Counted from the stretch's first letter, positions 1 through 28,907 are shown. The stretch is 29,411 nt of DNA from a bacterium (GCA_046485285.1 JAWOHE010000027.1:1-29411); one strand, 5' to 3'. Notes: a model not told the origin generated them from the sequence alone. A program made the numbers and translations.

Positions 1-75
1 GATTGAGAAACAACCGCTCAACAATGCAAAACTGAGGATAGCCAAGAGAATGATAATAATGTGTTTCTTATTCAT
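1..75 (-). CDS. Lipoprotein, N-terminal fragment (gene runs off left edge)
   Basis: Not in the ORF track. Minus strand from ATG 75 (alternative ATG 81) reads MNKKHIIIILLAILSFALLSG-CFSI: basic N-region, hydrophobic H-region and lipobox LSGC. AT-rich relative to the window. Confidence 0.75.
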   Translation of the reverse strand, partial: MNKKHIIIILLAILSFALLSGCFSI

Positions 76-115
76 GTGCATGACTTCACAATTTTCATTA
101 ACCCAATCTCCTCCC

Positions 116-323
116 CCTACCGTTCCCCCAACCGTCTGCCCTACCGTTCCCCCTACCGTTACCCCAACCGTATTCCCTACGGCTACCCCTACCGCTACCC
201 CTACCGTAGGGCTAACGGTTACCCCAACTGTAGGGCTAACCGTTCCCCCTACCGTTCCCCCTACCGTTCCCCGTACGGTACCCCCTAGGGTAGGGGGTAC
301 GGTAGGGGGTATGGGGGAGGGGG
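116..323. repeat. Degenerate 12-bp tandem array (consensus CCTACCGTTCCC, about 16-17 units) ending in an inverted, G-rich segment
   Basis: In-phase units from 116: cctaccgttccc, ccaaccgtctgc, cctaccgttccc, cctaccgttacc, ccaaccgtattc, cctacggctacc, cctaccgctacc, cctaccgtaggg, ctaacggttacc, ccaactgtaggg, ctaaccgttccc, cctaccgttccc x2, cgtacggtaccc, cctagggtaggg, ggtacggtaggg, ggtatgggggag. Confidence 0.95.
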
Positions 324-379
324 TAAATTCAGAGGTGAATGAAGTGCTGATTTTTCAACCGATTGCAACGATTCCCTGA

Positions 380-408
380 TTGACCGAGTCGTTAGTTTCT
401 ACTAACAT
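380..408 (+). promoter_or_regulatory. Putative sigma70 promoter, leaderless, for the HTH ORF
   Basis: TTGACC (380-385), 17 bp, TAACAT (403-408), 5 nt, ATG 414. Confidence 0.6.
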
Positions 409-413
409 AGGTT

Positions 414-704
414 ATGGACAGTAATGCGAAGGTGGCCGGCTTTGGACCGGGAGAGATGGTTGCGCCGGGTGCGGCGTTATGCGGGTTGCGGCGGCGGGCC
501 GGGCTGAGTCTCGTCGAGCTGGCGCACCTGGTGGGCCGCGAGCTTGGCTTCTGTTCGCACCTCAGCCGGCTTGAGCACGGCCGGTTGCGGCGCCCGACGC
601 CGGGGCTGATTGCCGATTACCTGCGGGCCTGCGGCGCGCTGCGCGCAGGCGGCCCGGCGGCATCTAACAGGCGTGAGCCGAGCACCGACGCGGGGAGAGG
701 TTGA
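414..704 (+). CDS. XRE-family helix-turn-helix protein, possibly truncated
   Basis: GAALCGLRRRAGLSLVELAHLVG...SHLSRLEHGRLRRPT...IADYLRACG matches the Cro/C1 XRE pattern (L..LR...GLS..ELA...G......SRLE.G...P). The tail after about 640 is low-complexity. Confidence 0.7.
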   Translation: MDSNAKVAGFGPGEMVAPGAALCGLRRRAGLSLVELAHLVGRELGFCSHLSRLEHGRLRRPTPGLIADYLRACGALRAGGPAASNRREPSTDAGRG

Positions 705-784
705 AACACCGAGACGCGGAGTGGGGGCGGTGGGCATTCCCGTTTCGCGCTGACGCATACGAGGTCCGGGCCACCGGCCGTGCC

Positions 785-813
785 TTGCCTTGTCCCGGCC
801 GCGGGGATATACT
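785..813 (+). promoter_or_regulatory. Putative sigma70 promoter, leaderless, for the rmlA-polA-wecB chain
   Basis: TTGCCT (785-790), 17 bp, TATACT (808-813), 7 nt, ATG 821; no SD sequence. Confidence 0.7.
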
Positions 814-820
814 GACCGCT

Positions 821-1555
821 ATGAAAGGTATAGTGCTGGCCGGCGGGATGGGGACGCGACTCCTGCCGCTGACGAAGATAACCAACAAGCATCTCCTACC
901 GGTGTACGACCGGCCGATGGTCTACTACCCGATTGAGAAGCTGGTCGAGGCCGGGGTGAGCGAGCTGATGCTGGTGACCGGCGGCGAGAGCGCCGGCGAT
1001 TTCCTGCGCCTGCTCGGGAACGGCCGGGAGTTCGGCCTGCGGCGCATCCACTACACCTACCAGGAGGGCTCGGGTGGGATCGCCGCGGCGCTGGCGCTGG
1101 CCGAGGATTTCGCCGAGGGCGACCGGGTGATGGTCGTGCTGGGCGACAACCTGTTCGAGGACAGCCTCGCGCCGTTCGCGGAGCGGTTCGCCGCCCAGGC
1201 GCGGGGCGCGCGGATCCTGCTCAAGGAGGTGCCGGACCCGGAGCGGTTCGGCGTCGCGACGGTGCAGGACGGGCGGGTTGTCCGAATCGTCGAGAAGCCG
1301 GAGAAGCCGGCGAGCCGGCTCGCGGTGACCGGCTGTTACGCCTACGACGCCCGGGTCTTCGACATCGTCAGCAGGCTCAGGCCCTCGGCGCGTGGCGAGC
1401 TGGAAATCACCGACGTCAACAACGCGTACCTCGACGAGGGCACACTCGAGTACGACGTCCTGTCGGGCTGGTGGCAGGACGCCGGTTCCTCATTCGAGGC
1501 CTACGCCCGGGCCCAGAGGCTGGCCCGGGAACTGCGGCGCGGCGCCGGGGCGTGA
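821..1555 (+). CDS. rmlA: Glucose-1-phosphate thymidylyltransferase (short RmlA/SpsI type), 244 aa
   Basis: MKGIVLAGGMGTRLLPLT..TNKHLLPVYDRPM, LGDN, EKP and PSARGELEITD motifs. Start moved from 701 to ATG 821. Confidence 0.88.
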   Translation: MKGIVLAGGMGTRLLPLTKITNKHLLPVYDRPMVYYPIEKLVEAGVSELMLVTGGESAGDFLRLLGNGREFGLRRIHYTYQEGSGGIAAALALAEDFAEGDRVMVVLGDNLFEDSLAPFAERFAAQARGARILLKEVPDPERFGVATVQDGRVVRIVEKPEKPASRLAVTGCYAYDARVFDIVSRLRPSARGELEITDVNNAYLDEGTLEYDVLSGWWQDAGSSFEAYARAQRLARELRRGAGA

Positions 1556-28708: not shown

Positions 28709-28801
28709 CCGGGCCGACGCCCGCCGGCATCGGCCGCCCTGACTGCTGTTCGGGCTCCACGCCGGGTACTGCCCTTCCCGGGTGTCCCGGCCGGCGACCA
28801 G

Positions 28802-28907
28802 CCTCCCCGCCTTCCCCGCTCCGGGGGATATCCCCGGGGGTATCCCCGTAGCGGTTCCCGGGGCCGTTCCAAGGGCCGCTGGGGGAGGGCGGCTGGGGGT
28901 GGGGTAC
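28802..28907. repeat. Short degenerate 12-bp-period element with C-rich head and G-rich tail
   Basis: Units from 28824: ggggatatcccc, gggggtatcccc, gtagcggttccc, ggggccgttcca, agggccgctggg. Preceded by cctccccgccttcccc and followed by ggagggcggctgggggtgggg. Confidence 0.65.

Follow-up and report, generated by a model that had tools for sequence, protein, structure and literature searches.

Cyanobacterial short tandemly repeated repetitive (STRR) heptamers are dispersed intergenic short tandem repeats, the repetitive extragenic palindromic (REP) sequences and bacterial interspersed mosaic elements (BIMEs) of E. coli are mosaic intergenic repeats, and the tubC units of pBtoxis are 12 bp in length. 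TubR centromeres are described as lying always upstream of tubR and as consisting of direct repeats in blocks which repress the operon promoter when bound (PMC6009700), and in R1 parC the iterons to which ParR binds are described as forming two sets of five (PMC2241845). The element presented here is an array of 12-bp direct repeats at the left end of a 29,411-nt stretch of DNA (GCA_046485285.1, JAWOHE010000027.1:1-29411; hereafter the window), with which contig 20 of a candidate division WOR-3 genome begins (2.34 Mb, 102 contigs, 88% complete). The array is followed by a promoter-like site and by the remnant of a helix-turn-helix (HTH) gene of the XRE/HTH_31 type. The strict link between such arrays and a single HTH protein family, the motifs at the array boundaries and the accompanying swarm of pseudogenes are new here. 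Our preferred reading, to which we give slightly less than an even chance, sees the array as a phased cis platform belonging to the control region of autoregulated HTH regulator genes, amplified and decaying in this genome.

The likeness to the tubC-TubR (type III) and parC-ParR (type II) partition systems lies in short direct repeats of about one helical turn at or upstream of the promoter of the gene for their own DNA-binding protein, and in a dual role as platform and operator which is described for those systems and, by analogy, proposed here. Direct repeats were found directly upstream of a DNA-binding protein gene, as in a centromere, but no motor gene (ParM, TubZ, ParA) adjoins the array in the window, where the neighbours are an NTP_transferase and a DNA_pol_A gene. 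At the copy on contig 19 (C19; contigs of this genome carry C-numbers and loci L-numbers) the open reading frames (ORFs) which follow were read by eye as heterodisulfide-reductase-like, and the other loci were not searched with motor profiles. The WOR-3 arrays further differ from tubC and parC in being chromosomal and present at many loci (1 to at least 18 family genes per genome), in having 15-30 units rather than 7-10, in having a separate palindrome as candidate operator, and in a unit sequence which is not tied to the orthology of the neighbouring protein. They share with STRR sequences a lineage-specific, non-coding, multi-copy intergenic occurrence with a conserved core and variable letters, but differ in their strict period of 12, their boundary motifs (C-rich at the left, a G-run at the right), their polarity flip and their fixed position 104-137 nt upstream of genes of one protein family. 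As in BIMEs, REP sequences and miniature inverted-repeat transposable elements (MITEs), the array is one module of mosaics in this genome; the WOR-3 modules, however, include a promoter and a gene fragment, and no transposase or REP-associated gene is linked to them. Clustered regularly interspaced short palindromic repeats (CRISPR) have repeats of 21-48 nt with unique spacers of similar length, whereas the window has contiguous 12-mers without spacers. An earlier note on this DNA, made from the sequence alone, was right to set the array apart from CRISPR and from ordinary variable-number tandem repeats. The same note had put the element forward as its best candidate for an undescribed one, and a search of the literature on intergenic tandem repeats in WOR-3 gave no description (subscription journals being outside this coverage).

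To relate the arrays to the HTH genes in another genus we used 20 chunks from three genomes (371,264 bp), each centred on one family gene. Tandem Repeats Finder (TRF) returned 15 arrays of period 12, 24 or 36, and all 15 were located 104-316 nt upstream of a family gene and in its orientation, ten of them at 104-137 nt; 14 of the 20 family genes had such an array, and no array of 12-nt period was detected by TRF in the approximately 350 kb of flanking DNA. In the genome of the window an array was found 105-162 nt upstream of 18 of the 23 family matches, and when the best family match in each of 30 genomes was inspected, TRF detected a row of period 12, 24 or 36 in the 700 nt upstream of 14 of them, with four of the 14 rows weak (2.2 copies or fewer). 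The link to an XRE-type HTH gene, remarked upon in the earlier note for this one locus, is thus real and family-wide. The same order of parts recurred on reading by eye, namely array, G-run or C-run/G-run turn, an AT- or purine-rich stretch of approximately 100 nt, a promoter with its perfect palindrome and the gene, and the unit sequence differed each time. Each paralogue, including those of other genera, had its own perfect palindrome at the promoter.

A turn-around of at least four C followed by at least four G was present at -101 to -118 in 6 of the 20 loci compared with 28 of 5,189 background windows, indicating that the polarity flip of the window has counterparts elsewhere. A search for the G-run with the motif AAATTC among 185,579 species genomes gave 27 loci, 21 of which were in three related records (15 in one bacterial metagenome-assembled genome (MAG), five in a candidate division WOR-3 MAG and L042 in a third record) and six of which were singletons. 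The related loci carried arrays wherever the contig extended far enough upstream, while the six singletons had none and were taken as chance. Two congeneric genomes carry this G-run with AAATTC, as does L042. A scan of metagenomes with the 30-nt junction of the array flavour seen at window positions 112-287 (type A) gave no matches, and with the 20-nt G-run motif a single match without an array, taken as chance.

Taken together with the analogy to the partition systems, these observations suggest the following arrangement. The module would be specific to one WOR-3 family and would begin with a row of 15-30 units in an exact 12-bp phase, every unit being made up of a conserved 5-7-nt core and a variable spacer. 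The row would end in a G-run or in a C-run/G-run turn-around and be separated by an AT- or purine-rich stretch of about 100 nt from the promoter, which a perfect palindrome overlaps. Last would come the gene, encoding a protein of 250-390 amino acids (aa) whose N-terminus is an XRE/HTH_31 domain and whose C-terminal part is all-helical. The palindrome would serve as the autoregulatory operator of the HTH dimer, and the phased row as a platform for a DNA-binding factor at one unit per 12 bp. This factor would most plausibly be the non-HTH part of the family proteins or a shared partner, with low sequence specificity. The platform may set or insulate the activity of the adjacent promoter, much like the ParR-parC and TubR-tubC arrays in front of their genes. 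About 31 places in this genome have received a copy of the 5' part of one such module (array, promoter and first 30-80 codons), with recombination between arrays as the probable route, and the copies are decaying; the window copy is one of these, cut at its left end and with a 96-aa HTH remnant only.

The features of the left end of the window are as follows.

1-111, no strand: unique AT-rich flank of 34-45% GC, from composition and from BLAST of 1-700 against the genome, in which 1-110 was found only at the window itself
112-287, plus strand: C-rich phased array of about 15 units, consensus TCCCCCTACCGT, with G-triplets at 208 and 232, from TRF, the unit list, per-position entropy and alignment with eight copies
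269-309, no strand: polarity flip, an inverted repeat centred on 289 and potential hairpin or cruciform, from the sequence, the repeat search and single-stranded DNA (ssDNA) folding
288-325, plus strand: G-rich flipped units and terminal G-run, from the sequence, the G-quadruplex (G4) motif and comparison of 24 copies
326-379, plus strand: AT/purine-rich spacer with conserved blocks at 338-345 and 352-358, from per-site diversity in 24 copies
380-408, plus strand: sigma-70-like promoter, TTGACC-17-TAACAT, from a promoter scan
414-704, plus strand: HTH_31 gene remnant of 96 aa, from the Pfam profile, translations of all copies and full-length relatives

TRF described the array at 112-287 with a period of 12, 14.7 copies, 0% indels and a score of 121, and the phase is strictly kept: 17 in-phase 12-mers could be counted in the register from 112, with phase maintained to 315. 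G-triplets replace C-triplets in the units at 208 (AGGGCTAACGGT), 232 (AGGGCTAACCGT), 292 (AGGGGGTACGGT) and 304 (AGGGGGTATGGG), the former two reading AGGGCT.. and the latter two AGGGGGTA... Positions 269-287 agree with the reverse complement of 291-309 at 17 of 19 positions, and the inverted-repeat search extended this to a wider pair of 31 nt (257-287/291-321) with 77% complementarity. Five runs of three or more G lie within 288-323, and 288-317 on the plus strand contains a canonical G4 motif by sequence (four G-tracts of at least three, loops of 1-7 nt). The earlier note had reported the strictly phased 12-mers without indels, the exchange of C- for G-triplets, the inverted repeat centred on 289 and the five G-runs, and all of these were confirmed. 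The folding and G4Hunter checks which it had proposed were also run; judged from sequence, 100-335 would fold as ssDNA at -53.3 kcal/mol compared with -39.7 +/- 3.1 in 200 dinucleotide shuffles (z -4.35), and the G4Hunter-type score was 2.4-2.5 across 293-329. Rfam covariance models gave no family at gathering score in window positions 1-1200, the sub-threshold rows being 12 microRNA-hairpin entries on 235-324 with 19.5-30.7 bits against gathering scores of 68-107, and no terminator-like sites were found in 1-900. The array starts 111 nt from the contig start, and in the window copy the flank at 1-111 stands in for the C-rich left motif (..CCCCACCCGCACTCCC) and first units of the other type-A copies.

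Downstream of the flip, 316-330 (GGAGGGGGTAAATTC) was invariant across the 24 compared copies. Three promoter-like sites were observed in 1-900 compared with 0.2 expected in shuffles. The palindrome GTTAGT-TTCT-ACTAAC at 391-406 overlaps the promoter spacer and the -10 hexamer and is a likely operator; positions 388-397 were nearly invariant among the 24 copies. The ORF at 414-704 matched Pfam HTH_31 with 29.1 bits (cut-off 27) over residues 20-77, and its homology to the WOR-3 family stops near residue 76, with divergence after ..DYLRACGA, so that it falls short of a full-length family protein, for which 250-390 aa and the conserved ADYLRAC..SF...LD.YT and YD.KT motifs are characteristic. Of the promoter and XRE HTH gene which the earlier note had placed after the array, the promoter stands, as does the HTH assignment, while the gene is a 96-aa remnant of a 250-390-aa protein. 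The genes 3' of this ORF encode a nucleotidyltransferase (NTP_transferase), with its own promoter-like site at 785-813, and DNA polymerase I. Separately, window positions 652-700 contain an independent repeat of about 50 nt (..GGCGTGAGCCGAGCACCGACGCGGGGAGAGGTTGAAACACC) which matches contigs C10, C44, C57, C75, C84 and C91 independently of the array family, and at 28790-28905 a short D-type element (flavours are given below) lies in intergenic DNA, with a C-rich start, a GGGGATATCCCC palindrome and a G-rich end and with no HTH gene linked to it.

The array of the window is not a stand-alone special element but one of 64 arrays and one of about 31 copies of a composite repeat. Window positions 111-661 matched eight to nine other places at 85-92% identity, and the part 307-661 about 31 places in all. 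A single copy with no conserved flanks, which the earlier note had named as a finding that would speak against it, is thus not what was found: the element is multi-copy. TRF on the whole genome gave 578 rows, with 106 of period 12, 101 of period 24 and 44 of period 36, which after merging yielded the 64 arrays of at least 60 bp. On by-eye reading of the consensus units these were assigned to type A (CCCCCTACCGTT; nine arrays including the window), type B (CCCCCGGAGTAA; 16), type C (GGTGACCGGNCG; three) and type D (CCCCCGGAGCGG; 31), with five further arrays outside A-D. A common C-rich left motif (..ATCCCCACCCGCAC/T..) opens arrays of all four flavours, and the right end, GGGGAGGGGG(T/G)AAATTC followed by an AT-rich core, is found in types A, B and C and in two type-D arrays; when reverse-complemented, the G-run matches the left motif at 13 of 17 positions. 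On either side of one array (C95:223-369) stands an inverted G-run motif. In a unit-for-unit alignment of the nine type-A copies, all had the internal pair of G-triplet units and the flip at the end, and the differences were confined to indels of 24 or 36 nt and one 1-nt deletion (C90); the unit order of the window is repeated in the eight other copies, four of which are more than 4 kb inside contigs (C101, C89, C95, C90). What had been described as a drift of the array from C-rich into its own reverse complement is therefore an inherited, fixed order and not a gradient.

Of the 64 arrays, 33 are located within 700 nt of a contig end, a zone which makes up 6% of the genome, indicating that the repeats break the assembly and that the array and copy counts are lower bounds. 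Damage was evident in many copies, with in-frame stops in C18, C22, C37, C65, C90 and C93 and start codons lost in others. Eight copies turn into unrelated sequence past window position 503, a palindromic segment inserted after ..LRAC is a further kind of damage, and the right ends of the copies are ragged (503, 615, 651, 661). Amplification has given rise to mosaics, among them the last 45 nt of a type IX secretion system (T9SS) cargo gene followed by about 70 nt, array, core and HTH remnant, with the left motif between gene tail and array, and a D2 array followed by a D1 array and a conserved non-coding module of approximately 170 nt. By a regular-expression test a T9SS-tail-like ORF end precedes 8 of the 53 arrays of at least 100 bp, there being 99 such ends genome-wide. 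The G4 motif was present in 14 of 29 core copies, and of the 434 G4 motifs in the whole genome 50 lie inside an array or close to one, the arrays accounting for 0.7% of its length.

Several further observations were made on these copies. D1 arrays at 16 places (e.g. C40:30500-30674, C88:34050-34240) precede the module of about 170 nt (CCCTGCCGTCAAAGCTC..GTGACTTACGTTT..), which is followed by REP-like hairpins (GGATGTAGGAGCGG..CCGCGACATCC) and contains no conserved ORF. An insertion sequence (IS)-like end (..TTGCAGACATTAYGGCACGCAAC) was seen nine times, on C7, C11, C39, C94, C95, C96 and C98 (e.g. C95:1-189, C98:1-189); seven of the nine adjoin a 12-nt array or sit within 10 nt of a G-run, three of them right at GGGGGAGGGGG, and the arrays look like a preferred landing site of this IS-like element. 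On C65 (3064-3647, L013) two cores with HTH remnants stand head to head around a perfect palindrome of flipped type-A units, an arrangement suggestive of an inverted duplication with the polarity flip at its centre. At C69:25800-26640 a type-B array abuts the middle of an ORF which reads by eye like elongation factor Ts and in which the GC content is below that of the genome; this join is possibly a chimeric contig or a contaminant.

A six-frame search detected family proteins in 43 of 43 genomes of the same taxonomic WOR-3 family, each of which gave 1 to at least 18 matches; in the class as a whole 51 of 132 genomes had them. Members are 230-400 aa in length with an N-terminal HTH and conserved ADYLRAC..SF and YD.KT motifs. 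Only two copies in the genome of the window are clearly full-length, of 291 aa (contig 19) and 268 aa (contig 4), and the 291-aa protein had nine relatives at E <=0.001 among 5.8 billion proteins. The full-length model is all-helical with a predicted local distance difference test score (pLDDT) of 83.9. For its N-terminal part (approximately residues 7-105) the structural matches were XRE-type HTH regulators, ClgR among them (Z 10-12), and restriction-modification controller proteins, while the C-terminal 200 aa had no confident structural match in this model. Foldseek of the full-length model against the PDB returned nothing at E <=0.001 beyond the HTH domain, a PDB sequence-profile search gave HTH domains only, and the ESM Atlas gave no usable match for residues 95-291. 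A strongly basic loop (..RGRPRK..R.QRL, degenerate GRRRK in this genus) was seen in some members, for example at residues 197-211 of L064, 190-204 of L066 and 234-251 of P0001. We take its GRPRK core to resemble an AT-hook; as a family-wide feature this was rejected, since the loop is clade-specific, with GRPRK in 4 of 45 members and the wider basic loop in 11 of 45.

When the C-terminal domain was modelled alone (pLDDT 84.1, predicted template modelling score 0.74), the only chains with Z of at least 8 among 48,161 were three archaeal filamentous virus capsid proteins, from AFV1, SIRV2 and SSRV1, which are four-helix bundles: 3fbz_A (Z 9.4, root mean square deviation (rmsd) 4.9, 109 aligned), 5w7g_B (Z 9.4, rmsd 3.8, 124/126) and 6wq0_A (Z 8.4, rmsd 2.2, 90). 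Three further relatives followed at Z 6.3-7.4. All of these values are below the caution level of about 13 for helical bundles, the sequence identities were 9-16%, and Foldseek with this domain against BFVD gave no match (best E 1.9), so that the capsid-like fold of the model has to be treated as a lead and not as membership. Capsid dimers of these viruses are described as wrapping A-form DNA at 12 bp per dimer (PMC5517147). A bolder possibility, which we consider quite improbable, is that the C-terminal domain could be a cellular relative or a convergent copy of these DNA-wrapping proteins, and that the arrays could be nucleation tracks on which the protein polymerises, with one dimer per unit, into a short nucleoprotein filament beside its own promoter, a form of "mini-capsid" control.

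The arrays themselves could be compared between orthologues. At three loci they were gap-free over 276 nt at 18-25% divergence, with 2-6 variable columns at some unit positions and 9-11 at others; the six most variable positions accounted for 60 variable columns and the six least variable for 27 (23 columns per position). In most flavours the unit has a contiguous conserved core of 5-7 nt beside one contiguous variable block. Promoter palindromes were paralogue-specific and unlike the array cores.

We have to admit that a number of results weigh against the preferred reading, that of a platform beside an autoregulated gene. In this genome 46 of the 64 arrays, including nearly all 31 of type D, have no detectable HTH match within 500 nt downstream, and 6 of the 20 family genes in the other genus lack a TRF-detectable array. 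At the orthologous site 5' of the nucleotidyltransferase gene, an array of a different flavour is present in one congener, with the same left motif but no HTH gene, and two congeners have no array. The excess of variable columns by 12-phase was not significant (hand chi-square of about 16 on 11 degrees of freedom). Array divergence (0.18-0.25) was similar in mean rate to that of four-fold codon sites in adjacent genes, which differ by 17-33% (0.17-0.33), indicating a sequence constraint which on average is weak and which falls mainly on the cores. Nor is flavour tied to HTH orthology: units of the GAGACCTTGCCA type are found before members of three orthogroups, three flavours occur within a single orthogroup, and flavours differ between orthologues with 79% aa identity, so that concerted evolution or array exchange is required. 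Near-identical HTH remnants stand behind four flavours in this genome, which makes a paralogue-specific reader unlikely. For this lack of tracking, and because the palindromes are unlike the cores, the HTH domain of the neighbouring protein is unlikely to be the sequence-specific reader of the units, contrary to the suggestion in the earlier note that the adjacent HTH protein possibly recognises them.

The main rival is a functionless, self-propagating minisatellite, its periodicity kept by slippage, unequal exchange and gene conversion, which was co-duplicated with the HTH genes and which serves here as a recombination substrate spreading neighbouring DNA. We consider this unlikely but the one to be taken most seriously, since it would account for orthologous arrays diverging about as fast as four-fold sites, for flavour switches between orthologues at 28% neutral divergence with their need for concerted evolution, and for the ragged, decayed copies, the arrays at contig ends, the IS-like ends at arrays or G-runs and the two head-to-head cores on C65. 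It does not readily account for paralogues of only 30-40% aa identity which retain a 12-nt array, the G-run or turn-around and the near-constant distance from the start codon although the array sequence has been replaced, and it leaves unexplained the contiguous variable blocks beside conserved cores and the absence of arrays from the flanks in the other genus. A structure-forming DNA or RNA element (cruciform, i-motif, G-quadruplex or RNA stem), which would insulate the regulator promoter from upstream read-through, often from a T9SS cargo gene, or would sense supercoiling, is in our estimation rather improbable. The fold energy of the window, the G4 motifs there, in the core copies and at arrays genome-wide, the enrichment of the C-run/G-run turn-around at a fixed place, the T9SS-tail-like ends before arrays and the imperfect inverted repeat of left motif and G-run all fit such an element, whereas the lack of a terminator-like site or Rfam match does not, nor do the flavours of other genera (GACAAAC, GAGACCTTGCCA, AGCAAC), which are neither C-rich nor G4-prone. 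Because the C-run/G-run motif is absent from 14 of the 20 loci, structure cannot be the common property of the row itself.

Translation of the array as a tetrapeptide repeat (PPTV in the window), as a PT-rich linker or small repeat protein, is very improbable. Twelve nt equal four codons, three of which in type A vary mostly at the third base, frame +2 is open over 2-379 with an ATG at 50 followed by a hydrophobic stretch, and at 7 of 14 other-genus loci an open frame extends from the array up to a point no more than 18 nt from the HTH start. In most arrays two of the three plus-strand frames are open throughout, which is what periodic DNA of high GC content would be expected to show. No conserved frame with a start and no third-position excess were found. 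The starts of the array ORFs range from -174 to -902 and extend into unrelated upstream genes, the L101 array is directly preceded by a stop codon, the C90 array has its 1-nt deletion, the variable positions in most flavours are contiguous, and there is no minus-strand ORF of 30 aa or more in 1-400. Variable columns of orthologous arrays fall 24/30/33 by codon phase, and diversity by codon phase among the 24 copies showed none in the spacer at 326-379 (0.196/0.158/0.159) or the HTH ORF (0.094/0.139/0.137), nor was there any in the putative tail at 308-379 (0.157/0.128/0.129). A PT-rich linker, which the earlier note had itself named as a finding that would overturn its view, is thus opposed by every codon test run. 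A MITE-like mobile element with the C-rich left motif and the G-run as terminal inverted repeats and a transposase acting in trans is improbable, if less so than translation; the imperfect terminal repeat, the inverted G-runs on both sides of C95:223-369, the multiple copies and the presence or absence at an orthologous locus among congeners would suit it, but the copies are 85-92% identical rather than near-identical, they end raggedly on the right, the sites inspected by eye showed no target-site duplication, and the arrays of the other genus are single, paralogue-specific and fixed in place. That the array is an assembly artefact at a contig end is scarcely credible: it does lie 111 nt from the end and its left boundary is unlike that of all other copies, but its unit order is repeated in copies well inside other contigs and the same architecture is present in other genomes.

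On the window itself, the open frame at 50-379 on the plus strand takes its ATG and hydrophobic stretch (MIIMCFLFMCM..) from the unique AT-rich flank and is seen in this copy only. Other candidate functions were tried and rejected. The core as operator half-site was suggested by type B (AGTAAC compared with the operator ACTAAC, 5/6), but no such likeness was found at the other loci read. A leader peptide after the G-run (MKC or a 14-mer, by eye) did not have starts and stops conserved among copies. Two further ideas were not general, type A having no GGA for a CsrA-type GGA sponge and type D having G-C skews of -0.09 to +0.12, at odds with a Rho rut-site, and a sigma-54-like TGGCA-N5-TTGC reading of one flavour (L110) did not fit other flavours.

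The position of half of the arrays at contig ends explains the poor assembly of this genome, and its annotation should be used with caution, as many of the small "XRE regulators" in it are gene remnants. Should the capsid-like C-terminal fold be real, it would connect a family of bacterial regulators with the proteins that wrap the DNA of archaeal viruses. Short phased intergenic rows are recurrent in uncultured bacteria and have so far been without a partner; one class, with a 12-nt period, 15-30 units, a terminal turn-around or G-run and a start codon at a fixed distance, is now tied to a defined protein family. What were unexplained repeats thereby become a testable module of regulator and platform, for which this genome offers two intact proteins.

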